From Nitratidesulfovibrio vulgaris str. Hildenborough (GTDB lineage: Bacteria > Desulfobacterota > Desulfovibrionia > Desulfovibrionales > Desulfovibrionaceae), in the NCBI RefSeq assembly GCF_000195755.1, contig NC_005863.1:90001-122000 (forward strand): DNA of 32,000 nt, read 5' to 3'. Below, piece by piece: positions 4,115 through 26,089 of this stretch (position 1 is the stretch's first letter; each line of letters starts with the position of its first letter). The position numbers and the translations under genes are program-made. Below the pieces are notes generated by a model. That model was not told the origin of the DNA. It worked only from the letters and a program-made list of their open reading frames with translations, and did no database searches.

Positions 4115-6271
4115 TCATGGGTGCATTCCGAGGCGGGATTTCGTGCCCCTGTAGACGCGGCGCAAGGCCATCCATACCGGCGTGGGGAGTTCCCTGCGCA
4201 GCCAGTTCTTGAACGCACTGCCGGGCCGCGGGTCTGAAACGGGGATGGACGGTTCTGCCTCGTGCGCTTCGGTATGCGCGAAGAAGATGTTCTTGCCGAG
4301 ACGTCCGGGCGCAAGCAGGCCTGCCTCTTCGAGATTGGTGTGAAAGCTGTGATACTCCGCCTGCAGGCAGCGGCTGTTCCGTGCGTAGAGTGCCGCCCAT
4401 GTGCCGAGGCTGGCCCGCAGGTTCGCGTCCGCATGCAACTGGTGCAGCCTCGTGATGAGGGCGTCAGGGGTCTCGTCCACGAGAAAACCTGAAACACCGT
4501 CCACGACCGCGTCTGGCAACCCCGTGCAGCGGTAGGCGAGGGAGGGGATGCCGCAGCAGGCGGCTTCCATGAGTGTCTGCCCGAACGTTTCGGCATGGCT
4601 GAAGCTCACCACCACGTCTGCCGCACGGTAGGCCGTAGCAACGGCTTCAGGGTCATGCAGGTAGCCGAGGGCCGTGAGTATGGGGAAGCGTGCGATCATC
4701 TCCTGTTCGACCACGCCGAAGCATATCACCTGAAGGTTCTCAAGCCCGGCCCCTGAAAGAGCCTCAAGACCCTCCACGGAACCCTTGAACGGCGACGAGA
4801 AGTCGACCATGGGCATGAGGACCACGAAGGCGTCCATGTCCAGCCCGAGTTGGCGGCGCGCTTCGAGCCTGTCTCCGGGGTGGAAGATGGATTCGTCGCA
4901 ACCGAGGCGAAGCAGCCGCGCCTCATGCCCGGGCGTGGTGCAGCCATCATGCTGGGCGCGTGTCCAGTTGCTGTTGGCCAGTGCGAGAAACGTGTCGCGG
5001 GCCATGACCTCGCGCTTGGCGTCCCATGCCTTGCGGATGTCCCCGGCGGCGATGGTGGGATAGGTGTCGGGGCTTGGGCAGGTGTGGTCGCACCCTGCAA
5101 GGTGTCTGACGCAGTCGAGAAAGCCGGGATGCGGGCAATGTCCGGTGAGCAGCCACAGGTCATGCAGGCAGAAGCATGTGGGCCAGCGGTCTGTAAGCCT
5201 GACGAGCATGTCCGAGTCGGCGATGGTGCAATGGAGATTGCCGCAGACGACGACATCGGGCTCGAAGGCCTCGATCTCGGAAATGATCCTCGCCGCAGTC
5301 GCCTCGAAAACATCGCGGGGACTCTGGAACCCCGTGGCCCATCCCCTGACCGTGTGCCCCGCCGAGGAAACGGCCGTGAAAAGGCGCTGGTGCGCGATAC
5401 CCGCCCCGTACTGGAACCCGATGTCGTTGACGAAGGCGACCTTGAGGGGGGGCGGGGGTGGCGGAAGAGTGGTGCGCGTGATGGGCGGCAGGCCATGCGT
5501 GGTGCGCCAAGCATTGGCCACCGGGATGTATTCGTCGGGGGATGCGTCGGGGTTGTTGGTCTTCTGTTCTTCATGCAGGCGGAACATGGCGACGGGTGCG
5601 CCGATGACATGCAGTCGGGCACCGCATGAGGCGAAGCGAAGCCACATTTCGACATCCATGCAGTAATGGAGGTCCTCCCGCACTTGCCCGCCCGCCCGCT
5701 GCCACAGGTCGCGGGTGAACATGACCTCGGGCTGGTAGAAGAACTTGCCTGTCTGCCAGCCGCCGTAGAGGTCTGAAATCTCTTCCGCAGGCAGGGTGCC
5801 ATCGGCGCAGGACGTGAGATGGGTCCCCAGATATCCCCCGTTCCGATACAGCTGGCAGCCTCCGGCTACCATGTCGGCACCGGACATGTGAAAGGCCATG
5901 GCCACAGCCGCAAGCGCCCCCGGGGCAAGCAGGTCGTCGCTGTTGAGCCATGTGACGATTTCGCCCGTGGCAAGGCGCATGCCCTTGTTGATGGCGTTCG
6001 ACTGACCGGTGTCGGGCTCTTGTATGATGCGGGCGACGTGACCCCTGTATCTGTCAAGGATGGCGGCTGTTCCGTCCTTCGATGCACCATCGACGATGAT
6101 ATGCTCTACATCGGGGTATCCCTGTTCGAGAACGGAGATGATGGTCTCTTCGATGTACTTCGCATTGTTGTAGGACGGCGTGACGATGGATATGCGAGGC
6201 CATGCACTGCCGTCGGGAAGCGTGGATGGTATGGCGACGGGGTGCTGGTTTTTCCTGAAAGCTTTGAGCAT
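4115..6271 (-). CDS. bifunctional glycosyltransferase (N-terminal GT2, C-terminal GT4/GT1-fold)
   Basis: The GT2 part shows ISIVTPSYNNAKYIEETIISVLEQGYPDVEHIIVDGASKDGT and LNSDD. The GT4 part shows SHAETFGQTLMEAACCGIPSLAYRCTGLPDAVVDGVSGFLV, an E-x7-E-like nucleotide-sugar site. Length is 718 aa. Confidence 0.85.
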   Translation of the reverse strand: MLKAFRKNQHPVAIPSTLPDGSAWPRISIVTPSYNNAKYIEETIISVLEQGYPDVEHIIVDGASKDGTAAILDRYRGHVARIIQEPDTGQSNAINKGMRLATGEIVTWLNSDDLLAPGALAAVAMAFHMSGADMVAGGCQLYRNGGYLGTHLTSCADGTLPAEEISDLYGGWQTGKFFYQPEVMFTRDLWQRAGGQVREDLHYCMDVEMWLRFASCGARLHVIGAPVAMFRLHEEQKTNNPDASPDEYIPVANAWRTTHGLPPITRTTLPPPPPPLKVAFVNDIGFQYGAGIAHQRLFTAVSSAGHTVRGWATGFQSPRDVFEATAARIISEIEAFEPDVVVCGNLHCTIADSDMLVRLTDRWPTCFCLHDLWLLTGHCPHPGFLDCVRHLAGCDHTCPSPDTYPTIAAGDIRKAWDAKREVMARDTFLALANSNWTRAQHDGCTTPGHEARLLRLGCDESIFHPGDRLEARRQLGLDMDAFVVLMPMVDFSSPFKGSVEGLEALSGAGLENLQVICFGVVEQEMIARFPILTALGYLHDPEAVATAYRAADVVVSFSHAETFGQTLMEAACCGIPSLAYRCTGLPDAVVDGVSGFLVDETPDALITRLHQLHADANLRASLGTWAALYARNSRCLQAEYHSFHTNLEEAGLLAPGRLGKNIFFAHTEAHEAEPSIPVSDPRPGSAFKNWLRRELPTPVWMALRRVYRGTKSRLGMHP

Positions 6272-6399
6272 AACGTTCCGATCACTTGCTGTTACAAGAC
6301 ACGTTTCGCCATGTCTTTGCCGTGGTTCATGATGTGAATCGCTGCGTCACTTGACGTTGTGAATGTATCACGTGACGTATCAATGGTATATGCCGTACA

Positions 6400-7737
6400 T
6401 CATGGTGCTGGCTTGTCGAATGGCGCAACCTTGAGAAATCCATCCATCGCATTGGATGCAAGTCTCTCATCTGCGGGCCCATGCATCCCATGATGTTCTT
6501 GATTTATGATGTCATCCTCATATATATCTGTGTATCTTTGTGCAATGTTTTTTCCATTAAAACGGTTCATGGCGAACATCCGGGCTTTCTGACGGAGAGA
6601 CTCCATGTCACTCGAAAGCAGCCTGTCGAGTGCTTCGGCAAGGTGTTGCGGCTGGTTGCCCGAGATGAAACCCGTTTCCCCGTCCTGGAAAGCCTCTGTG
6701 CTGCCACCCGCATCGAAGGATATGACCGGGGTTCCGCAACATTGCGCCTCGCAAAGGGTGTTGGAGAGGTTGTCGAGACGTGATGGATGCACGAAGACAT
6801 CCGCCATGTTGTACCAGTCCACCAGTGATTCCGCATCGAGGCTTCCGACATGCCGCGTGGGGAACGATGCCAGCAGGTTCGCCCCGCCTGCACCGAAGAG
6901 TACGAGTTCGAATGAGATGTGCGGACGTCTCTGTGCGAACTGTTCCATCGCTTCGACCATGCACCCGATGTTCTTGCGGGGATTGTCGAGGGACTCGACG
7001 CCGGTGAGTACGATGAACGTGTCCTTCTCGACCCCGTACTGGCTACGCAGGCTTGCCCTGTCGCGCGGCGCGAAAAGGGTCGTGTCGTGCGTGTTGGGAA
7101 TGACAGCGACCTTCTTCCCGGTGAAGAGCGGGCTTCGGCGGGCTTTGTCGGCCAGCCATGCGCTGGGGCTGACCATGGTGATGTCGAGTTCACGGTACAG
7201 AAGGCGTTTGAACCGGTGCGCCTGCAAGCTGACATCGTTGGGGGCAGGATGCGCCAGCAGGGGACAGTTGCCGCATTCATGCTCATACCGTTCGCATGAG
7301 ACATGATAGTGACAGCCACCCGTGAAGGGGTTCATGTCGTGGAGTGTCCACACGAGCTTCTTGTTCCGCAGCAGCCTGAAGAGGGCGGGGGAGTAGAGGA
7401 TGCCTGACGCCCAGTGGAGGTGGACGACGTCGGCGGCCTCGACGATATGGTCGGGCAATGCCGGAGAGGCGAGAAGTGTGGACGTGTCGGAAAAGAGCTC
7501 ACACGCGCCTTGTTCGCGTGTTTCGGGCGTGGAGAGTGTGCTCCAGTACCGGAAGAGTGGAGACATGAAGGGCGTTGCGTCAGGTCGCTGGTAATTGAGC
7601 GCCACATGCCCCGGCTGCACGGGGTCGCAGCAGGCGAGGGTGCATGCATGTCCGTACTCGACAAGTGCGGAATGGAGGCGCTGTGCCGCATAGGTCGCCC
7701 CGCCTGCGGGCAGCGCCGTGATGGTCAGTATGTTCAT
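6400..7737 (-). CDS. GT4-family glycosyltransferase
   Basis: I set the start at ATG 7737 (MNILTITALPAGGATYAAQRL...), a typical GT4 N-terminus. The C-terminal segment VHPSRLDNLSNTLCEAQCCGTPVISFDAGGSTEAFQDGETGFI is also typical. The 17 extra N-terminal codons of the track ORF are not needed. Confidence 0.85.
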   Translation of the reverse strand: MNILTITALPAGGATYAAQRLHSALVEYGHACTLACCDPVQPGHVALNYQRPDATPFMSPLFRYWSTLSTPETREQGACELFSDTSTLLASPALPDHIVEAADVVHLHWASGILYSPALFRLLRNKKLVWTLHDMNPFTGGCHYHVSCERYEHECGNCPLLAHPAPNDVSLQAHRFKRLLYRELDITMVSPSAWLADKARRSPLFTGKKVAVIPNTHDTTLFAPRDRASLRSQYGVEKDTFIVLTGVESLDNPRKNIGCMVEAMEQFAQRRPHISFELVLFGAGGANLLASFPTRHVGSLDAESLVDWYNMADVFVHPSRLDNLSNTLCEAQCCGTPVISFDAGGSTEAFQDGETGFISGNQPQHLAEALDRLLSSDMESLRQKARMFAMNRFNGKNIAQRYTDIYEDDIINQEHHGMHGPADERLASNAMDGFLKVAPFDKPAP

Positions 7738-7845: not shown

Positions 7846-10515
7846 CTAGTCGCCGGGCCGGTGTACGTCCGTCTCCTGTCCGTCAGCCTTGGTGCGGACG
7901 AGGTGAACCCGGGCGTACCGTTCGCGGATGAATTGTCCGTTCGAGGCTTCAAGGAATTCGTCAACCGCCCTGCGGCATCCGCTGTAGTGGTCATAGTCGT
8001 CGATGATCATGCGGCCCCCCGGTGAGATGTGGGGGGCGATACGCTCAAGGCAGGTCTTCACCGACTGGTACCAGTCGCAATCTATGTGAGCCAGCGCCAC
8101 CGGCCCGGAAGGGTAGAGGGTGTTCTCGTAGAGGCCGGGGACGAAGGTTATGCCATGTTCGGCAGGGGGCAGTCCGAGAGCGACGAAGTTGTCCTGCACA
8201 TTCTTGAGCAGGTCAGGTTCGTAGCCGTAATAGCGCTTGCCGTTGAGCCCCGTGGACTCTCCGGCGGCAATGACCGCAAAACGGGCACGTGCCTCTTCGC
8301 CATCGTTGCTGCCGGGGGGCGGGATGCACCCGAAGACATCGAAGACATGCAACGGTCGCTCTTTAGCCTTGGCCGTGGCAAGAACCATGGTCGACCCGCC
8401 GAGGGCACACCCGGCTTCGATGATACAGCCCGGGATTGCCGCCGATTCGATGAGCCCTACGGTCTCGGCGAGCCCGTGCAGGGCTCCCGGTTCGAGATAC
8501 GAAAGCCCCTCGTCGAGCACATGCCTGATGACGGCGGTCCTGCCAGTGCCGGAGGGCACCCCCCCGATGCGCTCTGCCATCTCGTCGTCGACGAGTCGGG
8601 GCAAGGGGGTCTGCGCCGTCCATTCCTCGATTCCGCTCACATCCAGCACGGCAAGGCTGCAAAGCCGCCACCAGACGATGCCGGGAAGCTGCTGCGGGAG
8701 TTTCTGCAGGTCGACAAGCTCACGCAGCAGGGGGCTTCGGTGCACAAGGGGCATGAGGTCTGCCTGCAACTGTGGCAGCTTGGAGCTGATGTCCGTGTAA
8801 AGCCCCCGTTTTATCTGGTGAAACCGCAATGATTCAGGGATGGCGGGGAACAGCTGCCGTGCGAGTCCCTTAAGGTACCCGTCCTGACACAGGTCCTTCA
8901 GCGGGACGCTGGCACAGAACTCGTACAGCCGCGTATCCAGCAGGGGAACCCGTTCTTCAATGCCGTGGGCCATGGAGTTCCGGTCGGCGTCCCGCAGCAG
9001 GTATTGCAGTTCATATGTGAACAGGGATTTCTGCTGTTGTTCCCCCCACGAAGAGGCGCCGACGAATGTCGAAATCCATTCTTCAGGGTCGGCGATGGTG
9101 TGCTTGAGGTGCAGGGCTGCGATGTCGTGTGCGTAGTCGTTTGCCCAGCCTAGCGGGTGGCTGTAGCTGTCCCATGTGCTTCTGATGGTGCGTCTGTCCT
9201 GCATGAGATGCCTTGACTGACGCAGACACCACCAGATGAGAGACATGATTCGTCTCTGTGCGAGCATGTCGCGAACGACAGCCGGATAGTACCGTTGATA
9301 GCCGCAGAACAGTTCGTCGCCACCGTGTCCGCTCATGGACACGATGACACCCAGCTTGCGCATTTCACGATACAGATGGAACTGGTTGTACGACCCCCAG
9401 AAGAGCGAAGGCTCGTCGTTGAACAGCATGTAGCGGACGATGTCGGCCGTGGGAATGGCGTCGGGATGCCGTATGGGGTTGACATGAAGCCCCAGTTTGT
9501 CAGCCAGCGCCGTGATGAGCGGAAATTCGTCGAGCATTGAAGAACTGGCAGCGTCGATGGAATAGCACTCAGGGGCGATGCCTTCCGCGACAAGGGCAGC
9601 CGCCACGTTGGCGGAATCGATCCCCGAACTGAGACACAGCCCGACATCACGGTCGCTGCGCATCCGTATGCGGCATGACTGGCGAATGAGCCCCGCCCCT
9701 TCGTCGACGAGTTCGTGAAGGCTACGCGGTGTCTCCGTGATTCTGGGCGCGTAATAGCGTGTCACCGACGGCTCATCGTCGGGGCTGGCGAGCGTAAGGC
9801 AGTGACCGGGCGGGATTTGCCTGATGTTCTCGAAGAAGGTCCGTCCCTGCGGGGCAGTCGTCAGCGCATAGGAAAGATAGGCGGAGGCCACGTCCGGGTC
9901 CCACTTTCGCAGCACCAGTCCGCTGGCGGATATGGCCTTGATCTCCGAGGCGAAGATGAGGAAATCGTGCGTGACGGCGTAGTGGAACGGCTTGACGCCG
10001 TAGTGGAACGGCTTGACGCCGAACGGGTCGCGTGCGGCGAAAAGACTGCCACGGCTGGCATCGAAGATGGCGAAGGCGAATATGCCGTTGAACCGTTCAA
10101 GGCATCCTGCGCCCCAGTGGCGGTAGGACGCAAGAAGCACCTCGGTGTCTCCGGAGGTCTCGAAGTGCTCGCCGAGTGCGGTCAGTTCACTTCGAAGTTC
10201 GATATAGTTGAAGAGCTCACCATTGAAGACGATATGCAGGTCCCCCCGGCGTAGCGGCTGGGCCGACTTGTCGGAGAGGTCGAGAATGGACAGCCTTCTG
10301 TGGCCAAGCCAGACCGGCGCGGGTTCCAAGCCGGCTGCGAGGGCGTCAGCCGAGTGGCGTCGTCCTGCCGCGAAGGCCCCGGTCGACTGCCGCCGAAAGG
10401 ATACACCGTAACCGGCGTCAGGCCCACGATGCTCCTGACTGGTGAGCATCCTGTTCAGGGGCTGGCTCGATACGTTTCTGTCTTTGCGAGATATGATGCC
10501 TGCAATGCCGCACAT
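7846..10515 (-). CDS. asparagine synthase-like glutamine amidotransferase fused to a TylF/MycF-type methyltransferase domain
   Basis: The N-terminus MCGIAGI carries the Cys2 nucleophile of class II GATases. It is followed by RDPFGVKPFHY and FASEIKA, then the synthetase PP-loop region CLSSGIDSA. The last ~228 aa (7849-8532) read IIEAGCALGGSTMVLA...AHIDCDWYQS...GGRMIIDDY, which resembles the macrocin O-methyltransferase (TylF) family. AGAGG lies 6 nt upstream of the ATG. Confidence 0.85.
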   Translation of the reverse strand: MCGIAGIISRKDRNVSSQPLNRMLTSQEHRGPDAGYGVSFRRQSTGAFAAGRRHSADALAAGLEPAPVWLGHRRLSILDLSDKSAQPLRRGDLHIVFNGELFNYIELRSELTALGEHFETSGDTEVLLASYRHWGAGCLERFNGIFAFAIFDASRGSLFAARDPFGVKPFHYGVKPFHYAVTHDFLIFASEIKAISASGLVLRKWDPDVASAYLSYALTTAPQGRTFFENIRQIPPGHCLTLASPDDEPSVTRYYAPRITETPRSLHELVDEGAGLIRQSCRIRMRSDRDVGLCLSSGIDSANVAAALVAEGIAPECYSIDAASSSMLDEFPLITALADKLGLHVNPIRHPDAIPTADIVRYMLFNDEPSLFWGSYNQFHLYREMRKLGVIVSMSGHGGDELFCGYQRYYPAVVRDMLAQRRIMSLIWWCLRQSRHLMQDRRTIRSTWDSYSHPLGWANDYAHDIAALHLKHTIADPEEWISTFVGASSWGEQQQKSLFTYELQYLLRDADRNSMAHGIEERVPLLDTRLYEFCASVPLKDLCQDGYLKGLARQLFPAIPESLRFHQIKRGLYTDISSKLPQLQADLMPLVHRSPLLRELVDLQKLPQQLPGIVWWRLCSLAVLDVSGIEEWTAQTPLPRLVDDEMAERIGGVPSGTGRTAVIRHVLDEGLSYLEPGALHGLAETVGLIESAAIPGCIIEAGCALGGSTMVLATAKAKERPLHVFDVFGCIPPPGSNDGEEARARFAVIAAGESTGLNGKRYYGYEPDLLKNVQDNFVALGLPPAEHGITFVPGLYENTLYPSGPVALAHIDCDWYQSVKTCLERIAPHISPGGRMIIDDYDHYSGCRRAVDEFLEASNGQFIRERYARVHLVRTKADGQETDVHRPGD
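9979..10020. repeat. perfect 21-bp tandem duplication (2 copies) inside the amidotransferase gene
   Basis: gtagtggaacggcttgacgcc occurs at 9979-9999 and again at 10000-10020 with 21/21 identity. It is in frame and duplicates the peptide GVKPFHY. Confidence 0.95.
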
Positions 10516-10605
10516 GAATGCCTCTATGGAAGCAGGGATGCCGCAGGGTGCACGTGTTGCATCCTTGCTGGCGCACCTGGGTTGATCGCGAGAATGGCCC
10601 GGTAG

Positions 10606-11295
10606 CTATCTGAAAAGCGTGAAGATGCTACGCCTTGCCGAGTAGCCGAACCTGTCCATCCAGAGCCTGTTCCGGCTCATGAAGTAGTCTATTTCAGATT
10701 TCTTGATCGACCATGGAACGCTGACCTTGCCCCTTCTGAAATAGTTCTTCCCCATGCCTTGCAGCGTGTCGAACGGGTTCACCCATTTGCGAAGCATGGG
10801 CAGACCTGTGAAGTCTGCAATCCTGTCGATGTTCTCCTGTGCTGCCGGAGACAACAGGTCTTCATAACGAATGAGCAATGTATTGGGTCGATCCATAGGA
10901 GACCATGCTTCTATGTGGGCAGACCATGTGGGGAATGCCGTCCCGTCGACCACCTGCTGCCAGGTGCACTGCACATTCTCTATTTTCGCCAGATAGTGGC
11001 GGTATGAATCGGTCGCGATGAGACCGTTGCGTATGATATAGATGGCCCGGTCGTCGCTCTCCGGTTCTTCATGGGTCTTGACGACCGTGACATGCTGTTC
11101 CGCACGTGCCTTTTCGAGAAAGTCGTCAAGTTCACCCCCGAATGGTCGCGCACCCATGAATTTGGCGATGTCGACATTGGAGTACTCGTTCGTACGTTCA
11201 TATTTCGAGTAGGTTTCAAGCCCGAAACAATGGTTGAAAATCGTCCGTAGCAGCGAATTGCCAGACCGGGGAAAGGATGTGAGCCAGACAAGCAT
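10606..11295 (-). CDS. PAPS-dependent sulfotransferase
   Basis: A 5'-PSB-like loop (SFPRSGNSLL, aa 7-16) and a 3'-PB-like segment (IIRNGLIATDSYRHY) are present. Size (229 aa) and order fit small bacterial sulfotransferases. An APS kinase gene lies in the same locus. Confidence 0.75.
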   Translation of the reverse strand: MLVWLTSFPRSGNSLLRTIFNHCFGLETYSKYERTNEYSNVDIAKFMGARPFGGELDDFLEKARAEQHVTVVKTHEEPESDDRAIYIIRNGLIATDSYRHYLAKIENVQCTWQQVVDGTAFPTWSAHIEAWSPMDRPNTLLIRYEDLLSPAAQENIDRIADFTGLPMLRKWVNPFDTLQGMGKNYFRRGKVSVPWSIKKSEIDYFMSRNRLWMDRFGYSARRSIFTLFR

Positions 11296-11382
11296 GTTGC
11301 GACCTTCTTCTATTCTGTGTTTCGTATGCTACTTGCCCATGGGACAATGATTTCCGGATGCAATGCCCATCCAGTTGACACG

Positions 11383-12804
11383 TCACCTGCGAAGAAGGCG
11401 GTTCCACAACTTTTTGAGTGTGAATCCGGTTTTCTCATCCTGTGGTGAGAATTTGACGAAGGCAGCTTCCTTGTCGGACTTGCGTTCGCTGAACCGGTAC
11501 CCTTCCGCATAGGCCGAAACGTACTCCGAATTCACATATGTAGAGAGCCTTCCTATGCACATGGCGCATCTCTGCCGGTACGGGCTTGCCGGGTCGGTTC
11601 GCATCTTCCTGTAGTAGCGTATGATTTCATCGAACGGCGCTTCGGAGATATGTTTCATCCATGAAGACGAGAGCGACGACCATTCAGCCTGATAGTTGCC
11701 TGTGCATGGTGCCACATAGCCGTTCGTCATCAGTACCGGAGTGATGAGACTGTTGAAACAGGCATGGGTCTTTACGGGCATGACCTTGTCTTCATGCATC
11801 GGAATACATTGGAACCAGCCCACCTGTTCAGCAAAGAACGAGAATGTATCTATGCCGAATTCTTTCCAGAATTCGAGGATTTCGTCTTTGCGGGTCTTGA
11901 CCTCGTCGAACCAGCCACTCTGTACCCCGATGATCATGCCTGAACCGGCCTCGTCCCTGACGCGCATCAGATTGCGGAGGTTGGCGAGAATCCTGTCGTA
12001 GTCAGCCCCAAGCCTGATGCTCTCGACGATTTCCTTTGTGTGCCCGTCGATGCTGAAGAGCACTGCGCCGACACCGAGCTCGACAAGTTCCCGGGCCACC
12101 TTGTCATCCACCAGCATGCCGTTGGTGAGGATGCGGACATGCAACCCCCTTCTGATGGCCTCGCGGATGTAGGGCATGGCCTTCTTCGATACGAACAGTT
12201 CACCTGTGCCGCAGAAGAGAAGGTCGTCTCCGGGCTTCCTCTGGTCGAGGAAGAGGTAGTAGTCCTCTTCTTTCAACTCTTGCCGTTCGGTCTTGCCCCG
12301 GCTCGCTGCGAAGTCGTAGCGCGAGTCGTCACCATGGAACGAGCACCCCCGGCATCGCAGGTTGCAGAAGTCCGTAACGCTCACCATGGTATGGTGGTAG
12401 AATGTGGAGAAGAGGAAGACGACCTCGAATGCGTCGTTGTAGTCCAGAAGGACAGGGTTGCTGCTGTAGAAGGCAGTCATGTCCAGGGCGGCAACCTTGT
12501 CCGCGAACGAGTCTCCCCATCGTGCCGGGTCGACGATGATCGTCTTTGGCAGGACTTCGGAGGTCAGCATGGGGGCTTTCCATTCCTTGTCCTCCATGAA
12601 ACGTCGCGCGTCGACGGTGCGTATGGCATCAGTGCCCAGCCATTCAGTGGCATGGTCACTGACATAGGCAAGAAAGTCGTCTCCGGCGTCTCCGAAATGG
12701 ATGACGACGGGGAGTCCGCCGCGCTGTATTTCGCGAAGTTCGTCAGGACCGAGCGCCTTGATTCCTTCAAGGGAGAAGATCGAAGACATCGTGTATCCCT
12801 TCAT
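11383..12804 (-). CDS. radical SAM enzyme (unknown reaction) with an N-terminal extension
   Basis: The canonical CxxxCxxC cluster motif FCNLRCRGC spans aa 146-154 (nt 12343-12366), followed by GTGELF and a Cys-rich C-terminal part (CFNSL...APCTGNY...RCAMCIG) that could be an auxiliary-cluster or SPASM-like region. ATG 12804 overlaps the wzt stop by 1 nt (TAATG). ATG 12789, preceded by AAGGGA, is an alternative start. Confidence 0.8.
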   Translation of the reverse strand: MKGYTMSSIFSLEGIKALGPDELREIQRGGLPVVIHFGDAGDDFLAYVSDHATEWLGTDAIRTVDARRFMEDKEWKAPMLTSEVLPKTIIVDPARWGDSFADKVAALDMTAFYSSNPVLLDYNDAFEVVFLFSTFYHHTMVSVTDFCNLRCRGCSFHGDDSRYDFAASRGKTERQELKEEDYYLFLDQRKPGDDLLFCGTGELFVSKKAMPYIREAIRRGLHVRILTNGMLVDDKVARELVELGVGAVLFSIDGHTKEIVESIRLGADYDRILANLRNLMRVRDEAGSGMIIGVQSGWFDEVKTRKDEILEFWKEFGIDTFSFFAEQVGWFQCIPMHEDKVMPVKTHACFNSLITPVLMTNGYVAPCTGNYQAEWSSLSSSWMKHISEAPFDEIIRYYRKMRTDPASPYRQRCAMCIGRLSTYVNSEYVSAYAEGYRFSERKSDKEAAFVKFSPQDEKTGFTLKKLWNRLLRR

Positions 12805-19665: not shown

Positions 19666-20697
19666 CTAACCTTTCGTCCCGACGCCCCTTCTCTCCAGAA
19701 TCTCCCCGGCGGGTTCCGTCAGGTGCGGCGAGTGCTCGTACCGGATGGTGGTCTGGATGGACTCATGGCCCAGCGCCACGCGAATCTGTTCCAGCGTGGC
19801 CCCGGCGAGGCGCGAGTGGGTGGCGAAGGTGTGCCGCAACCAGTGGGGCGAGATCTTCCGTCCGAGGGCGGCCTCTCCCCATCTGGTGACGATGCGGTAG
19901 GCCGTCTTCACCGTTATCGGCTGCGTGAGCACGCGGCGGTTGGGGAACAGCGGAACGGCATCGAGACCCGGTGCCGGCTGATAGGGCTCGATACTGTACA
20001 GCGCACCCTTCCATACCAGCAGGTCGGCGGCCAGATCCTTGGGAATGTGCAGATGCCGTGTCTTGCGCCCCTTGCCCATGACCGTCGCATACCAGCGCCC
20101 ACGTACGTCGCGCCTGAGGTCGCCCCACCGGAGTGAAACCGCCTCGGCGGCACGTGCCCCTGCGGCAAAGAGCAGTCTGCACATCAGGTGGTCGCGCGCC
20201 GGGGCGTGGCGCCGTGTATGTTCAAGCAGTTCTTGAACTTCTTCTGCCAGCAAGACCCGGTCGCCGTGATGTCCCTCGATATGCTTCGGCCCTTTCACGG
20301 GTGCCGCGGGGTTCAGGGGCAGCAGGCCGCATTTCCACAGGTACCCGAAGAACGACTTGATGCAGGCGAGCTTGGTGGCGATGGTCGCGGGTTTGTAGGC
20401 GGCCTGTTCCAGCGAGTTGAGCCAGTCTTCGATATGCCACACCCGTATGTGGGTGACCGGGGTCTCTGCGAAGCGGAAGAAGGCCAGAAGGGTGGGCAGG
20501 TAGACCCGGACGGTCCCGGGTGAACCTCGCCGCAGGGAGACCATGTGGGCTGCGATGGCCTGTTCAGTCGGTGACAGCCCGGTGGACGCCGTGAGGATGT
20601 CGGAGATGCGCCCGCCGGAAGACTCTTCGGTCACGGCGGCAATACGTCTCTTGTCCGGAGGCGTGAAGTACTGTTCGACGGGCAACTCGCTAACCAT
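19666..20697 (-). CDS. tyrosine recombinase / phage-type integrase
   Basis: The catalytic signature is in order: ARAAE (Arg I), GKGRKTR (Lys), HWLRHTF (His-x-x-Arg), LGHES (His) and TIRYEH (Tyr nucleophile). The N-terminal SAM-like core-binding region contains IKSFFGYL. Length is 343 aa. Confidence 0.9.
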   Translation of the reverse strand: MVSELPVEQYFTPPDKRRIAAVTEESSGGRISDILTASTGLSPTEQAIAAHMVSLRRGSPGTVRVYLPTLLAFFRFAETPVTHIRVWHIEDWLNSLEQAAYKPATIATKLACIKSFFGYLWKCGLLPLNPAAPVKGPKHIEGHHGDRVLLAEEVQELLEHTRRHAPARDHLMCRLLFAAGARAAEAVSLRWGDLRRDVRGRWYATVMGKGRKTRHLHIPKDLAADLLVWKGALYSIEPYQPAPGLDAVPLFPNRRVLTQPITVKTAYRIVTRWGEAALGRKISPHWLRHTFATHSRLAGATLEQIRVALGHESIQTTIRYEHSPHLTEPAGEILERRGVGTKG

Positions 20698-20995
20698 GAC
20701 TGGGCCCTCATTCCGGGTACGCGCCGCACCGGGGCATCAAGACCATGCAGCGCAGTGGAAGCCTGTGTCAGGCATGTCAGGGTCTGACCATGACTCGCAG
20801 CGGGCATGCCCCGGCAGCTGATATGCCTCGTGCCGACCGATGCGCCAGATGGTGTGCTGGTCTTCACGCGCGGCAAGGCTTGCTATCTGGAATACCCACT
20901 GAAGCTCTTCGTGCCATCCTCGATTCCATCATGATCGATATAACACACGAATGTGCTTTTCTGATTTTAAGATGATTGTCAAGAAAAGTCGTGTT

Positions 20996-21023
20996 ATGTC
21001 CGAAAACATTTATTTTCGGACAT
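20996..21023. promoter_or_regulatory. 11-bp perfect inverted repeat (operator-like palindrome) upstream of the AbrB-type gene
   Basis: atgtccgaaaa (20996-21006), a 6-nt spacer cattta, then ttttcggacat (21013-21023). It lies in the A+T-rich divergent region, 66 nt upstream of the ATG at 21089. Confidence 0.45.
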
Positions 21024-21050
21024 TGCATAAAAACGCTGTTTTCATATGCT
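21023..21050 (+). promoter_or_regulatory. candidate sigma70-type promoter for the AbrB/helicase-nuclease pair
   Basis: TTGCAT (21023-21028), a 16-nt spacer, then TATGCT (21045-21050), about 40 nt upstream of the ATG. The -35 hexamer overlaps the right arm of the palindrome. The hexamers match consensus only 3/6 and 4/6, so this is weak. Confidence 0.3.
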
Positions 21051-21088
21051 CACCCAAATGGCAAACACGGCAAGACAAGGAGCTGTCC

Positions 21089-21301
21089 ATGGCAAGACCT
21101 GAATATGAAGTGCTCAAGCAGACTTCCACCGGAACCGTACAAATCCCGAAGGGCCTTCTGCAGAGAATCGGCATCAAGGAGAACGAGGCCATTCTTGCGA
21201 TGCCGCGCCCTGACGGGACAATCGTCCTGCACCGTTTCGACCCGCTTCGGGCTATCGTGACCAACCAAGAGGACGATTTGCCACAGGGCGAAACGGACTG
21301 A
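21089..21301 (+). CDS. SpoVT/AbrB-type (MazE-like swapped-hairpin) DNA-binding protein, 70 aa
   Basis: MARPEYEVLKQTSTGTVQIPKGLLQRIGIKENEAILAMPRPDGTIVLHRF fits the AbrB-domain pattern (x-v-t-IPK-x-l-x-x-lGIk-x-g-d...dG-x-IvL). A consensus AAGGAG lies 7 nt upstream of ATG 21089. The 46 upstream codons of the track ORF run through the A+T-rich promoter region and I excluded them. Confidence 0.7.
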   Translation: MARPEYEVLKQTSTGTVQIPKGLLQRIGIKENEAILAMPRPDGTIVLHRFDPLRAIVTNQEDDLPQGETD

Positions 21302-21355
21302 ATAGCCCGCCCCGAGACTCCCGATTTTCCAGCTTACCCCACATAGAGCACACTC

Positions 21356-24300
21356 ATGCACTCACTCGCTCGCAATCTTACCCAGTACTTTCGCGATTCG
21401 CTTATCGATGAACTCATTCTCGATGAGGTCGGAAGCCCCAAGGGCGCCAACACCTACACCACCATCTCGCCAGAACAATTCGAGCGTGGTGCGTTGCCTG
21501 CAAAGCTTGCAGAGGGGTTGTTGGGCGACCAGGATGAGCAGCGACTGCTTATTGCCCCGATGCAGCTCAAGCGAGGCTTCTTTCGTGACGCACGGCACTG
21601 GAGGCAGCCTGAAGTCATTACCCCCATGCTAGTGCCATGCGTTCTCAGCAGGGACGGAAAACTGGCAGCCCAAGAGCGAATCATGCCGTGGTTCATTCGT
21701 GACTATCTTGATCCAGTCGTCTCTGCAGATAGCGTCGTTATCAGTTCGGTCGATGATGTTGAAGAGTTCATCGCACGTAACAGCCAAGACTTCGCTTGTA
21801 CAAGTTGGCAGGAGTACCTCAGCTTTTGCTCTAAAATGCTGCAAGATCTGATCGGGTTCGACGCCGATGGCAGAGTACAGCTTGGGCATGCGGCCTATTT
21901 CGCGTGTAACGAACCTCGCGTGTATCTGGACAGCGGGCAAGGCGGGGCAACCAGCAATATCAAGAAGCTCTATGACAGTGTGCTGAAAAAGAAGGACATG
22001 CCCAAGGCGTATGAGAGCTTTGTGGCTGGGTGTTCCGCGCCAAGAGCCTTATTGACTTTGGAAGAGGAAGTTGACGTGGCCGCCCATAGCCATTTGGGGC
22101 AGATGAGCGGGGCTTTCGGACTCGGTGCCAGCCAGCGTGAAACCATTCATCATTTTCTTTCCATCAATGAAGGTGAAGTGCTGGCAGTGAATGGTCCTCC
22201 CGGAACAGGCAAAACCACGCTGTTACAGAGCGCCATTGCTTCATTATGGGTAAAAGCCATCATGGTCGCCGGGAATGATTATCCGGACCCGCCTGTCATA
22301 GTGGCCACTTCATCCAACAATCAGGCTGTGACGAATGTCATCAGAGATTTTGGCGAGGTGCTCAAGCTTGAGTCAGATAACCCTCTCGAAATGCGCTGGC
22401 TTCCTGAAGGGGTTGGTAGCCTTGGCACCTACGCCGTTGCTGAGGCTAGACAAAAAAAGCTGGAATCAGAGGACAATCGCCTCCTTTGCGTGTCTCTTGC
22501 GTGGGTCAGTGGTGGCTACAAACTGAAAGGTTTTTTTGAAAAGACCGAATCTCCGGAATTCATCGGGCAGGCAGTTACAACATATCTGGAGATGTACGAG
22601 CGGTTCTCCGGGGCATCCATGAAGAGGGAAGCGCCCGCTGAGCTGGTGAAGGCCATCCGCAAAGAGCTTCGCAGGCGTATGCTGCATATTGCTGCGGATA
22701 TGCAGGAGACTCTTGCCTCCTGGAAACGGTGTCGTCAGGACGTCGAGCGTAAGGCCGAGACGGAAAAGAATCTGACTGGACTGAAAACTTCCTTGCGCAG
22801 ATGCACCGAAGCGTCATCAGCCAAGGCTACCCAACTGATCAAGGCTGGCGAAGAGCTAACCCGTACTGGCACCGTGGCAATGGAAGCGGCGTCTACCATT
22901 GCTGGACAGCCTTTTTGGGAAAGTCTGCTAGGGGCTTTGGGTTTTGTCAAAGAACGCCGGAGAGCCCGCGCAAAAGCCTTCACCCTGAAGCATGGCCTTG
23001 AGATGGATCCTGCTCCACAAAGCCTGCATGATGTGGAAAAGCATGTTGATGATTTGCTGGACACCGTTAAAAAACGTCACAAGGCCCTGAGTCGTGAACT
23101 CGATGAATTACAACGTGCCGCAGCAGGCATGGAACAGGAGAAAGGAGAGCTGAAGGCGTTACTGCAAGGAATTGCAGGACGCGCAAGCAGGTTGGCGGAA
23201 ATCCTCGGCGTGCAAGAGTGTGAGTTAGATTTTACCCGCGCTGGTTTGTATCGTGTTCTGGACCAGTTCGACCGGAACGCGCGTTTCGAGATGTTCCTTC
23301 TCGCCGTGCACTATTACGAAGGGCTCTGGCTCGAACACATGCTTAGAAGTGAGAACGGCAAGGTCTCCGGAAAGGATCGGTTGAAGCGCCTTGCCATGCT
23401 CACGCCCTGCATTGTTTCCACCCTGTTCATGGTGCCCAAGTTCTTCAGCGAGTCCGGGGCACCTCTCTATGAGTTCGTTGATCTGCTCATTCTTGATGAA
23501 GCCGGTCAGGCTGGACCGGATAAGGCAGCAGCCGTCTTCGCGCTAGCAAAGCGCGGACTTGTGGTGGGTGATGTGCACCAGATAGAGCCAGTGTACAAAA
23601 TCCCCGTTTCCGTGGATTTGGGAAACCTGAAGCGCAACAACGTCTATGTGGGGCGCGAAGAAGAAATGCCCAGGGCGGTTGCCGTTTCCAAGGGAAGCGC
23701 CATGCGCATGGCACAGGATGCGAGCCCGTACCATTGCATTCTCAATGGTCACCCTGCCGAAGAGCGCGGCATGTATCTCTTGGAGCATCGTCGATGCCAT
23801 AAAGATATCATCGGGTACTGCAAGGAGTTGGTGTATCCGCATCTTGAGGTGCTCACACGGCAGGAACCGGACGACTTTTATCTTTTTCCACCGCTAGGTT
23901 ATGCTCATATCCCCTCTTCCGGCCAAAAGAAGGGCGGAAGCTGGTGCAACCCTTATGAGGCACACAACATCGCGCAGTGGTTGGCTGATAACCGTGATCG
24001 AATCCTGGCACGCTATAAGGCGTCTTCGCTGGCAAGCGTGATTGCCATCGTGACCCCGTTCGCCCGACAGGTCTCGTCCCTTCGCGAGAGCATGCAGGGG
24101 TGTCTTCCGGAGAGCGATTATGCGGAAATGGTGGTGGGGACGGTGCACAAGCTGCAAGGAGCAGAACGGCCCATCATTGTTTTCTCGCCCGTGTATGGTC
24201 CCGGCAACGTGGCTGTTCCCTTTTTCGACCGGGGTAGGAATATGTTGAATGTTGCCGTTTCACGGGCGAAGCATTCGTTCCTTGTCTTCGGCAATATGGC

Positions 24301-24886
24301 CCTGTTTGACCCGGGCAATGGACGTCCTTCTGGAATCCTTGGCAAGCATCTGCAGTGCAACATGATGGCCGGGGAGCTGGATGGCTTCCGCTTGGCCCCT
24401 CGTCCCATTCAAGGCCGTATCGAGCACCTTACAACTCTCGACCAGCACAGAGAGACCTTACGTAAGGCATTTGAAACGGTTCGCGAACAGCTGGTGATTG
24501 TCTCGCCGTTCATTACGCGCAATGCCCTCAAGGCGGACAACGTGCTTGAGATGATCCGTTCTGCAGTAGGTCGTGGCGCTGCCGTCGATATATATTCGGA
24601 CTCTCGCTTGGCGTTGTCCTGCTGCCAGAATCAACAGGCTGCACTTGATGATCTGGCTCAGGCTATCCGGGATGCAGGTGCAAGGATCGAGTTTAAAAAT
24701 GGCGTGCACAACAAAACGCTGATTGTGGACAAGCATACCCTCGTTGAGGGGTCGTTCAACTGGTTGTCTGCACGGCGGGATGATTTAGCTAGGCGAGAAC
24801 ATTCGATTTCATATCATGGCATTGAAGCCGGTGCATTAATGGAGGATATTCTTCCCGGACTCTCGGAAAGCGATACCAAAGGTTAA
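21356..24886 (+). CDS. Upf1-like SF1B helicase (AAA_11/AAA_12, COG1112-type) fused to a C-terminal single-HKD PLD-family nuclease domain; Mokosh type II-like
   Basis: Helicase motifs are all readable: I GPPGTGKT (aa 280-287, nt 22193-22216), Ia ATSSNNQAVTNV, II LILDEAGQ (aa 711-718), III LVVGDVHQIEPV, IV LLEHRRCHKDII, V IVTPFARQ and VGTVHKLQGAERPIIVFS, VI LNVAVSRAKHSFLVFGN. The C-terminal HKD motif is HNKTLIVDKHTLVEGSFN (aa 1118-1135, nt 24707-24760). The start is pinned because an in-frame TAG at 21344 leaves ATG 21356 as the first possible start codon. It lies 54 nt downstream of the AbrB-type gene. Confidence 0.9.
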   Translation: MHSLARNLTQYFRDSLIDELILDEVGSPKGANTYTTISPEQFERGALPAKLAEGLLGDQDEQRLLIAPMQLKRGFFRDARHWRQPEVITPMLVPCVLSRDGKLAAQERIMPWFIRDYLDPVVSADSVVISSVDDVEEFIARNSQDFACTSWQEYLSFCSKMLQDLIGFDADGRVQLGHAAYFACNEPRVYLDSGQGGATSNIKKLYDSVLKKKDMPKAYESFVAGCSAPRALLTLEEEVDVAAHSHLGQMSGAFGLGASQRETIHHFLSINEGEVLAVNGPPGTGKTTLLQSAIASLWVKAIMVAGNDYPDPPVIVATSSNNQAVTNVIRDFGEVLKLESDNPLEMRWLPEGVGSLGTYAVAEARQKKLESEDNRLLCVSLAWVSGGYKLKGFFEKTESPEFIGQAVTTYLEMYERFSGASMKREAPAELVKAIRKELRRRMLHIAADMQETLASWKRCRQDVERKAETEKNLTGLKTSLRRCTEASSAKATQLIKAGEELTRTGTVAMEAASTIAGQPFWESLLGALGFVKERRRARAKAFTLKHGLEMDPAPQSLHDVEKHVDDLLDTVKKRHKALSRELDELQRAAAGMEQEKGELKALLQGIAGRASRLAEILGVQECELDFTRAGLYRVLDQFDRNARFEMFLLAVHYYEGLWLEHMLRSENGKVSGKDRLKRLAMLTPCIVSTLFMVPKFFSESGAPLYEFVDLLILDEAGQAGPDKAAAVFALAKRGLVVGDVHQIEPVYKIPVSVDLGNLKRNNVYVGREEEMPRAVAVSKGSAMRMAQDASPYHCILNGHPAEERGMYLLEHRRCHKDIIGYCKELVYPHLEVLTRQEPDDFYLFPPLGYAHIPSSGQKKGGSWCNPYEAHNIAQWLADNRDRILARYKASSLASVIAIVTPFARQVSSLRESMQGCLPESDYAEMVVGTVHKLQGAERPIIVFSPVYGPGNVAVPFFDRGRNMLNVAVSRAKHSFLVFGNMALFDPGNGRPSGILGKHLQCNMMAGELDGFRLAPRPIQGRIEHLTTLDQHRETLRKAFETVREQLVIVSPFITRNALKADNVLEMIRSAVGRGAAVDIYSDSRLALSCCQNQQAALDDLAQAIRDAGARIEFKNGVHNKTLIVDKHTLVEGSFNWLSARRDDLARREHSISYHGIEAGALMEDILPGLSESDTKG

Positions 24887-24997
24887 AGGTCGACGCTTCC
24901 CGTGTCGGCAGTATCACGTGCTTCGTCGGTATAGGGCACCCCTTCTCAAGTTCCTGTTGGTACGGAGAAACCACGCAAGCCGGGACAGGCAGCACGG

Positions 24998-26089
24998 TCA
25001 GTCGCGCCAGCGGTCGCGGATGGCGTCGATTTCGGTGCGGTGGCACAGGAACGCATCGACCACGGCGGGGTCGAATTGCGTGCCCGCGCCGTCGCGGATG
25101 AGGATGGCGGCCTCATCGGGAGGCATGGCGGTCTTGTAGGGACGGTCGCTGCACAGGGCGTCGTAGACGTCCACCACCGAGACGATACGCGCCTCGACGG
25201 GGATGTCCTCGCCGGACAGGCCGAAGGGGTAGCCCCCGCCGTCCCATCGTTCATGATGGCAGAGGGCGAGGATGCGGGCGAGGGCGAGTTCGTCGAAGGG
25301 CTGCTGGTCACGCAGCAGGGGCACGTCGGAGCATATGCGGTGGGCGGCCTCCCTGTCGTCGAGGGGGCCGAGTATCTCGCACCCGTAGAGGCAGTGCCTG
25401 CGCATGATCACCAGTTCATCGTCGTCGAGGCGACCGGGCTTGAGCAGCACCTCGTCGGGGATGCCTATCTTGCCCACGTCATGCAGGGGGGCGCACTCGC
25501 CAAGCAGGTCGCACTGCTGCGTCCCGAGTCCCATGGCGGCCCCCAGAAGACGGCTTATCTGCCCCACGCGGATGACGTGCCGCCCCGTCTCGTTGTCCTT
25601 GTACTCGGCGGCGCGGCTGAGTCGCTGCATGACCTGCCGCCGCGTCTCCTCCAGTTCTTCCGTACGTTGCCGCACGAGGCATTCGAGGTTCTCGCGGTGC
25701 ATCCTGTTCTCGCGCAGCAGGCGCGCCCTCTCGAACACCCTGTTCAGGGTATGGTCGAGCATCTCGAACGAATGCAGCGGCTTGGTGATGAAGTCCCACG
25801 CCCCACGGCGCATGGCGGCGATGGCGTCCTCGATGACGCCGACGCCGGAGAGGACGATGATGGGCATTTCGGGGGCCTCCTGCGTGGCGTGCCCGATGAA
25901 CGACGCCCCGTCCATGACCTGCATGTTCAGGTCGACGATGACCGCTTCGATGCTGTCGGCGTGTTCGCGCAGCACCTCAAGCCCTTCAAGGCCGTTGCAG
26001 GCTTCGAGGGTATCGAGGTCGAGGTCTTCGAAATGAGCGGCGAGGGAACGCCGCAAGCCCGGTTCGTCGTCGATGATGAGGATGCTCAT
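24998..26089 (-). CDS. response regulator with HD-GYP output domain (c-di-GMP phosphodiesterase type)
   Basis: I set the start at ATG 26089 (MSILIIDDEPGLRR...). The receiver shows DD, VIVDLNMQVMDG and ITKP. The HD-GYP domain shows HDVGKIGIP and HHERWDGGGYP. ATGA overlaps the stop of the upstream receiver gene. Confidence 0.9.
   Translation of the reverse strand: MSILIIDDEPGLRRSLAAHFEDLDLDTLEACNGLEGLEVLREHADSIEAVIVDLNMQVMDGASFIGHATQEAPEMPIIVLSGVGVIEDAIAAMRRGAWDFITKPLHSFEMLDHTLNRVFERARLLRENRMHRENLECLVRQRTEELEETRRQVMQRLSRAAEYKDNETGRHVIRVGQISRLLGAAMGLGTQQCDLLGECAPLHDVGKIGIPDEVLLKPGRLDDDELVIMRRHCLYGCEILGPLDDREAAHRICSDVPLLRDQQPFDELALARILALCHHERWDGGGYPFGLSGEDIPVEARIVSVVDVYDALCSDRPYKTAMPPDEAAILIRDGAGTQFDPAVVDAFLCHRTEIDAIRDRWRD

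Follow-up and report, generated by a model that had tools for sequence, protein, structure and literature searches.

Mokosh type II is defined as a single gene that encodes a helicase with a C-terminal PLD nuclease, while in Mokosh type I the two activities are split over two genes, with MkoA also carrying a Ser/Thr kinase domain (10.1101/2022.05.11.491447). Mutants in the ATP-binding site or in the PLD site of the type II protein lose defence (10.1101/2022.05.11.491447), and one purified type II protein is reported to behave as a 132-kDa monomer that, in one panel, provided protection only against a single-stranded DNA (ssDNA) phage (10.1101/2025.07.10.664194). Here we analyse a 32,000-nucleotide stretch of DNA from Nitratidesulfovibrio vulgaris str. 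Hildenborough (NC_005863.1, positions 90,001 to 122,000 of the forward strand; hereafter the window), which contains a gene of this type, mkoC. This gene lies just downstream of abrB, a co-oriented gene for a 70-amino-acid (aa) AbrB-type protein, and abrB is in turn divergent from a gene for a tyrosine recombinase. An earlier, sequence-only reading had proposed that abrB and mkoC might form a distinct two-component variant of Mokosh with AbrB as the partner.

We consider it likely that mkoC is a stand-alone Mokosh type II gene, present as variable cargo on a megaplasmid of ~200 kb, and that the upstream abrB belongs to a recombinase-palindrome module and not to the mkoC system. The proposed partnership did not hold up: abrB tracks the recombinase, persists in plasmids without mkoC and was found near MkoC in none of the 14 other lineages that we surveyed.

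The MkoC protein and its relatives

The 1176-aa product of mkoC matched the PADLOC MkoC profile (PDLC03924) with E=0 and 1030.8 bits, residues 1-1164 aligning to profile positions 1-1127 of 1136. The runner-up PADLOC profile, MkoA, gave a partial match (102.7 bits, E=4.7e-30, aa 709-985), and so did MkoB (aa 1024-1110, E=3.1e-15). Because the profile match runs end to end and the protein has the published type II architecture, the mkoC product is, as judged by sequence, a regular member of Mokosh type II and not just 'Mokosh-like'; this near full-length match bears out the assignment more strongly than the label 'Mokosh-II-like' given to it by the sequence-only reading. Since the PADLOC MkoC model matches end to end, both PADLOC and DefenseFinder should call mkoC as Mokosh type II. 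A type I identity is ruled out by the fusion of the two activities, by the partial nature of the MkoA and MkoB matches and by the lack of a Ser/Thr kinase domain in the mkoC product as judged by Pfam. A literature search found no paper that mentions both Mokosh and Desulfovibrio.

Pfam searches gave matches to AAA_12 (E=2.8e-17), AAA_11 (E=9.3e-11) and AAA_30, in agreement with the helicase that had been predicted. For the predicted PLD nuclease the outcome was divided: PLDc_2 matched with an E-value of 7.7e-6, but its score of 26.2 bits falls just below the Pfam cut-off of 27. All eight motifs quoted in support of the original assignment are present in the protein, namely GPPGTGKT (aa 280), ATSSNNQAV (aa 317), LILDEAGQ (aa 711), VVGDVHQIEPV (aa 736), EHRRCHKDI (aa 810), TVHKLQGAERPIIVFS (aa 929), LNVAVSRAK (aa 964) and HNKTLIVDKHTLVEGSFN (aa 1118), and the strict HxK(x4)D (HKD) pattern occurs once, as HNKTLIVD at aa 1118-1125. 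The motifs for ATP binding and hydrolysis, GPPGTGKT with K286 and LILDEAGQ with D714/E715, are intact. Across 31 homologues (30-79% identical), residues K286, D714, E715, H1118, K1120 and D1125 are invariant, as is the GSFNW motif.

The AlphaFold2 model of MkoC (pLDDT 87.2, pTM 0.81) had UPF1, SETX and IGHMBP2 as its top Foldseek neighbours (E ~1e-15), with Aquarius, Dna2 and ZNFX1 also among them. By searching a profile of the homologues against PDB sequences, we obtained matches to Dna2, UPF1, Sen1/SETX and IGHMBP2 on the helicase part (E 1e-17 to 1e-14) and, at the C-terminus, to Nuc (1byr, E=7e-6) and PLD6/Zucchini (4ggj, E=2e-5). The gene and the parts of its product are laid out as follows (ORF, open reading frame):

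21356..24886, plus strand: mkoC, 1176 aa, RefSeq WP_011176663.1 'AAA domain-containing protein' (PADLOC MkoC profile, ORF list, AlphaFold2)
21356..22105, plus strand: N-terminal domain, ~aa 1-250, of no Pfam family; conserved in MkoC homologues, with profile coverage from position 1
22109..24310, plus strand: SF1B Upf1-like helicase core, ~aa 252-985 (AAA_11, AAA_12, AAA_30, PDB profile, Foldseek)
22193-22216, plus strand: Walker A motif GPPGTGKT, in the helicase core
22634..23347, plus strand: helical (coiled-coil-like) insertion, ~aa 427-664, between the Walker A and Walker B parts (AlphaFold2)
23486-23509, plus strand: Walker B motif LILDEAGQ, in the helicase core
24416..24820, plus strand: C-terminal PLD-family nuclease domain, ~aa 1021-1155 (PLDc_2, MkoB and Nuc/PLD6 profile matches)
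24707-24730, plus strand: HKD motif HNKTLIVD, in the PLD domain

The N-terminal ~250 aa gave no Pfam match and contain conserved columns that include Y11, G45, P68, R115, W151 and H246. Within the insertion, the AlphaFold2 model has helices at residues 427-516, 557-617 and 628-664, and the profile matches in this region (Mce4_CUP1, RmuC, JetC and LmuB) are weak and of the coiled-coil type.

MkoC is ~33% identical to proteobacterial and Firmicute homologues. Our survey covered 14 other lineages at 29-80% identity, the closest three at 80%, 68% and 63%. When genome contigs were scanned with the complete MkoC alignment, matches to the generic Walker A sequence GPPGTGKTT dominated, with 2-5 true MkoC loci among the matches listed; the scan that replaced this one used a sub-alignment of the PLD domain alone on metagenomes and returned 80 loci, mostly redundant human-gut copies that collapse to a handful of lineages. 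A scan of viral contigs gave a single MkoC-type locus, and so there is no evidence that MkoC is carried by phages.

Genes found beside MkoC relatives include Thoeris with a NACHT protein, a Schlafen-like ATPase, type I restriction-modification (R-M), BREX, CRISPR-Cas I-E and a ParE toxin gene. Since relatives adjoin other defence genes, both a defence role and a stand-alone nature are supported for the MkoC family, and, on the location in defence islands for which the sequence-only reading wished homologues to be surveyed, relatives were seen in typical defence neighbourhoods with Thoeris, BREX, CRISPR-Cas I-E and type I R-M. The neighbourhoods concerned (L013 4225-9657, L146 1-3518, L147 8679-13564 and L062 1-5673) contain Thoeris (ThsB TIR and ThsA Macro) with a 1314-aa NACHT protein, BREX PglZ and BrxL, CRISPR-Cas I-E (Cas3, Cse1, Cse2) and type I R-M. 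In an abundant human-gut MkoC lineage (L070 1982-2529), an 80-aa ORF immediately precedes and overlaps the gene for a ParE toxin (PF05016, E=2.4e-10); the ORF is a candidate antitoxin gene and gave no match to any antitoxin family. The two are found upstream of the MkoC gene on the opposite strand, and the pairing is not conserved in other lineages.

No conserved upstream partner gene was found in the 14 other MkoC lineages. The AbrB profile had no match anywhere in the retrieved loci of any of the 14, and for eight of them the upstream ORFs of the same orientation that were run against Pfam showed no AbrB/MazE domain. The only other locus that holds both abrB and mkoC (L063) is a copy of the same element at 99.3% identity. 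Co-conservation of abrB with the helicase homologues, whose absence the sequence-only reading had named as evidence against a partnership, was thus not seen in the survey.

The abrB gene and the recombinase-palindrome module

The 70-aa protein is plausibly of the AbrB type, each single line of evidence from sequence and model being weak. Its matches to PF04014 (E=0.006, 16.9 bits, cut-off 24.7) and TIGR01439 (E=0.015, 15.0 bits, cut-off 28.3) are both sub-threshold, and an AbrB profile run against PDB sequences matched AbrB and SpoVT non-significantly (E 0.5-1.2). In the AlphaFold2 model (pLDDT 74) the elements follow one another as beta-beta-alpha-beta-beta, as in a swapped-hairpin half-barrel. 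The six structures that Foldseek ranked highest for it are of SpoVT, AbrB and an AbrB-like archaeal protein, with weak E-values of 0.2-0.6. The NCBI/RefSeq family name is AbrB/MazE/SpoVT. Of the SpoVT/AbrB type originally claimed, then, the predicted fold and the RefSeq name speak in favour, but all profile and structure scores lie below significance.

The gene is DVUA0084 of Hildenborough, as the published dvua0084 cloning primers match 21110-21129 and 21278-21301 exactly; an older annotation places the start at GTG 21110, giving 63 aa versus 70 aa. DVUA0084 is already published as an expressed AbrB-family regulator: it is listed as an AbrB-family transcriptional regulator, is highly expressed in biofilm cells (4851 transcripts per million, TPM) and affects biofilm formation when ectopically expressed or overproduced (PMC6170446). 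In Supplementary Table 3 of the same study, dozens of megaplasmid genes stand together at TPM 0 in the 'dispersed' sample, a pattern that suggests loss of the plasmid or low coverage in that sample rather than regulation.

The elements around abrB are the following:

19666..20697, minus strand: Xer-like tyrosine recombinase gene, 343 aa, divergent from abrB (Phage_integrase, Phage_int_SAM_1)
20996..21023, no strand: palindrome 11-6-11, 28 bp, candidate operator or recombinase core site
21089..21301, plus strand: abrB (DVUA0084), 70 aa, putatively AbrB/MazE/SpoVT-type (sub-cut-off profiles, AlphaFold2 topology, RefSeq name, primers)
21266..24977, plus strand: 3712-bp segment swapped for filler in near-identical plasmids (BLASTN, junctions read)
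21302..21355, plus strand: abrB-mkoC spacer, 54 nt (consensus scan, RNA fold)

The tyrosine recombinase reported upstream is present, its start lying 391 nt from that of abrB, and matches Phage_integrase (PF00589, E=1.8e-25) and Phage_int_SAM_1 (E=1.6e-9). The XerC (E=1e-40) and XerD (E=1e-36) models also match, both below their equivalog cut-offs, and the recombinase is therefore not a true XerC or XerD. Its translation contains the R..HxxR..Y catalytic set, with the C-terminal residues readable as HWLRH...LGH...IRY.

A search of 5.8 billion proteins for AbrB homologues gave five clusters. A related tyrosine recombinase adjoins abrB in all five, which are all Nitratidesulfovibrio-type plasmid DNA, and MkoC is present in none. 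In four of the five, which make up all the other plasmid-type loci, a Fic-family gene lies between the recombinase and abrB; the window recombinase is 84% DNA-identical to that of these recombinase-fic-abrB loci. The conserved core (~19686-21265) consists of the recombinase gene, the divergent intergenic region and abrB, and homology to the relatives stops just within the 3′ ends of the two divergent genes. Between these genes lies a perfect 11-6-11 palindrome (20996-21023), ATGTCCGAAAA-CATTTA-TTTTCGGACAT, which is unique in the window, with none expected by chance, and is kept in every related recombinase-(fic)-abrB locus with 0-2 arm mismatches, even where the flanks have diverged. By its geometry the palindrome would suit either a candidate operator for a dimeric regulator or an Xer-type (dif-like) core site.

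Because the recombinase is a member of this conserved recombinase-(fic)-abrB module whatever the cargo, it is weak evidence for a mobile island; the adjacent recombinase that the sequence-only reading had pointed to is there, but it is a marker of a plasmid backbone module and not the border of an mkoC island.

In the manner of a mosaic unit, the core has counterparts at L144 5994-7574 and L001 5885-8210 (window 19686-21265), with differing flanks on both sides; on the left, strain L2 has patatin and PrsK genes versus glycosyltransferases in the window. In the plasmid relatives the 304-aa Fic gene overlaps the start of the recombinase gene, and the window has ~240 nt of unrelated sequence (20712-20953) in its place. 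A few kb from recombinase-fic-abrB, the second plasmid of strain L2 (CP116247.1, L001 11356-15918) carries a segment resembling the 3′ segment of a class 1 integron, with Pfam matches to Pterin_bind (sul1-like), Multi_Drug_Res (qacE-like), a LinB-like nucleotidyltransferase and a Transpeptidase-fold protein; at the equivalent place L002 has Tn3 and mer genes.

The persistence of abrB without mkoC is seen most directly in close relatives of the plasmid. Metagenome contigs L006-L008 and the strain L2 plasmid pDsulf-L2-1 (NZ_CP116248.1, L144) match the window by BLASTN at 98-99% identity to the left and right of the mkoC segment and keep the recombinase and abrB, and they have no mkoC. In these sequences window positions 21266-24977 (3712 bp), which comprise the final 12 abrB codons, the mkoC gene and the 91 nt that follow it, are replaced by 378 bp of unrelated filler; the filler (strain L2, L006) had no similarity to mkoC or to any other locus retrieved. 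The C-terminal tail of AbrB in the window is closer to that of the plasmid relatives than the filler-type tail is, and since it is, there is a weak hint that the filler state may be the derived one.

Against this background we regard it as highly improbable that AbrB and MkoC form a true two-component system, in which AbrB would act as an antitoxin-like brake on, or a dedicated repressor of, the nuclease-helicase. The two genes do lie on the same strand, 54 nt apart, with neither a terminator-like site nor a stable structure in the spacer; both are lower in G+C than the plasmid, and the AbrB/MazE-type fold is common to many antitoxins. However, outside the pDV1 lineage none of the five AbrB clusters contains MkoC and none of the 14 MkoC lineages contains this AbrB, so the conserved adjacency expected of a type II toxin-antitoxin pair is not seen; abrB is intact beside the recombinase in plasmids that lack mkoC; and Mokosh type II works as a single gene moved into E. 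coli and purifies as a monomer.

The fic gene of the relatives raises another explanation, to which we give a small but real chance: abrB could be the orphaned antitoxin or regulator of a Fic toxin, left behind when fic was lost in the pDV1 lineage, and have no functional link to mkoC. The position of fic between the recombinase and abrB in four of five clusters fits this, as do a weak match of AbrB to TIGR02609 'doc_partner' (E=0.052) and the absence of fic from the window, where tblastn found no remnant between the recombinase and abrB and only a weak match (E=0.043) elsewhere. Yet fic is divergent from abrB and overlaps the recombinase gene, and so its operon partner is the recombinase gene, not abrB. 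To our knowledge, Fic antitoxins have a different fold from AbrB, which also counts against the idea. In D. vulgaris, moreover, abrB is intact and highly expressed without fic (PMC6170446).

What follows abrB at its 3′ end varies between plasmids: a 205-aa protein with weak GNAT similarity (L001 8223-8840, Acetyltransf_7 E=8e-4), an unrelated 188-aa protein of no family (L058 2668-3234), convergent methyltransferase and conjugation genes, or nothing. The 205-aa and 188-aa genes are co-oriented with abrB at 13-15 nt, and their products might be toxin-like cargo. This variety would suit a cargo platform, in which abrB and its operator/promoter gate interchangeable, possibly toxic or defence cargo and AbrB is a generic brake and not a dedicated Mokosh partner; we give this account a slim chance. 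In its favour, three different co-oriented genes (mkoC, the GNAT-like 205-aa gene and the 188-aa gene) follow abrB at 54, 13 and 15 nt; the two alternative cargo genes are mutually unrelated, each with its own Shine-Dalgarno sequence; locus homology breaks inside or just past the 3′ end of abrB; and the palindrome and upstream region are conserved. But at least three contexts have no co-oriented gene 3′ of abrB (the 378-bp filler; convergent methyltransferase or other genes), the six contexts come from one bacterial family and half of them lack a co-oriented downstream gene, and no repeat or second palindrome flanks the cargo, leaving no sign of site-specific capture. For mkoC itself, the sequences on either side of the segment were searched for repeats, both direct and inverted, and for another copy of the palindrome; matches did not rise above chance level, and site-specific cassette capture is therefore not supported.

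Several observations weigh against the preferred view of mkoC as a stand-alone gene. One is the arrangement of the two genes: they share a strand, the 54 nt that separate them hold no terminator, and no promoter for mkoC alone could be recognised, so AbrB may influence mkoC expression at this locus. The presence of a different co-oriented gene 13-15 nt 3′ of abrB in two other plasmids likewise hints at a functional relation between abrB and what lies downstream. The surroundings of mkoC in the window are glycan-biosynthesis genes on one side and two-component signalling genes on the other, and not a defence island; the defence role of its product is argued by analogy with its family; and for three of the surveyed MkoC relatives the upstream sequence amounted to less than 400 nt.

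A promoter/terminator consensus scan of 20600-25100 returned nothing informative near abrB or mkoC, and neither a terminator-like nor a promoter-like site in the spacer; RNA folding of 21270-21375 gave no stable structure around it (z-score 0.23). Because the genes are co-oriented, with no terminator or hairpin between them and no recognisable mkoC promoter, read-through from the abrB promoter into mkoC is possible, in which case AbrB autoregulation could modulate mkoC in the pDV1 plasmid lineage alone.

The locus on the megaplasmid

The window has a 100% identical counterpart in pDEVAL01 (NC_017311.1), the 202-kb megaplasmid of Nitratidesulfovibrio (Desulfovibrio) vulgaris RCH1, on which RefSeq annotates the same three ORFs at exactly matching coordinates as tyrosine-type recombinase, AbrB/MazE/SpoVT family DNA-binding protein and 'AAA domain-containing protein'. 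The abrB-mkoC segment is also on the DP4 megaplasmid at 99% identity. The basic gene structure described in the sequence-only reading is correct: the 70-aa and 1176-aa ORFs, the 54-nt gap, the ribosome-binding site and the stop codon that fixes the mkoC start all lie where it had put them. The ribosome-binding site of abrB, AAGGAG, is at 21077-21082, six nt 5′ of the ATG. The start of mkoC is pinned to ATG 21356 because an in-frame TAG (21344-21346) precedes it with no start codon in between.

The low G+C content claimed for the large gene was likewise confirmed, at 54.0% versus 64.6-66.1% in the recombinase, glycosyltransferase, response-regulator and kinase genes, and its G+C at third codon positions is 0.59 versus ~0.8 in flanking genes. 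This deviant composition, together with the presence/absence polymorphism among near-identical plasmids, supports the horizontal acquisition of mkoC that had been proposed.

Two more stretches of low G+C, at window positions 5500-7000 and 10500-12500 (0.52-0.54 versus ~0.64), lie inside the glycan-biosynthesis cluster and contain genes for a family 4 glycosyltransferase and for a sulfotransferase and a radical SAM/SPASM protein. They suggest mosaic acquisition in the glycan cluster too.

Proposed mechanism and comparison with known systems

By analogy with its family, a single MkoC chain would combine two activities, an SF1B Upf1-like ATPase/translocase and, at the C-terminus, a PLD (HKD) nuclease. 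The helicase would load on single-stranded invader nucleic acid, be it phage RNA, an RNA/DNA intermediate or ssDNA, and translocate 5′ to 3′ at the expense of ATP, after which the HKD nuclease would cleave the invader nucleic acid. The PLD active site is normally built from two HKD motifs. Since MkoC has one such motif per chain, cleavage probably needs two molecules that meet on the substrate. AbrB, for its part, is most likely a small protein that regulates its own gene from the divergent promoter region, where the palindrome is its candidate operator. The mkoC gene would have landed just 3′ of abrB, where relatives hold different cargo, and read-through from the abrB promoter, if any, would follow from where the gene happens to lie and would not reflect a conserved partnership.

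For defence biology these results change little. They do identify a defence gene on the well-studied megaplasmid of D. vulgaris Hildenborough/RCH1, where RefSeq labels it merely 'AAA domain-containing protein', and show it to be polymorphic among otherwise near-identical plasmids. They also counsel caution, as a small DNA-binding gene that adjoins a defence gene is easily over-read as a component of the system. The recombinase-palindrome-abrB core with its variable flanks could interest plasmid biologists.

The closest described system is Mokosh type II (MkoC; Millman et al. 2022; PADLOC PDLC03924, also in DefenseFinder), with which the window protein shares the N-terminal region, the Upf1-like SF1B helicase and the C-terminal PLD domain. 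There is no architectural difference; the window gene is found on a Desulfovibrionaceae megaplasmid, outside a defence island. Mokosh type I (MkoA and MkoB) uses the same helicase and PLD families, but in the window protein these are fused and the MkoA and MkoB profiles each match in part only.

Among eukaryotic proteins, UPF1, SETX/Sen1, IGHMBP2 and MOV10L1 resemble the MkoC helicase in fold and motifs, and PLD6/Zucchini of the piRNA pathway, like bacterial Nuc, resembles the MkoC PLD domain at the level of sequence profiles. The analogy to Upf1-like helicases and PLD6/Zucchini has already been drawn (10.1101/2022.12.12.520048). Unlike the eukaryotic systems, MkoC fuses both activities in one chain, differs in its N-terminal domain and contains a long helical insertion, and there is no evidence of small-RNA biogenesis.

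The window AbrB shares predicted topology and size with the swapped-hairpin AbrB/MazE/SpoVT proteins (PF04014), which include type II antitoxins, but it comes without a conserved cognate toxin, its conserved neighbour being the tyrosine recombinase.

Single-recombinase Xer-type systems with the site beside the gene include XerS/difSL and XerH/difH, and there are also plasmid multimer-resolution systems. The window likewise combines an Xer-like recombinase with a 28-bp 11-6-11 inverted repeat of dif-type geometry, a candidate site. The palindrome is unlike dif in sequence, however, and the relatives have it between fic and abrB, with fic separating it from the recombinase gene.

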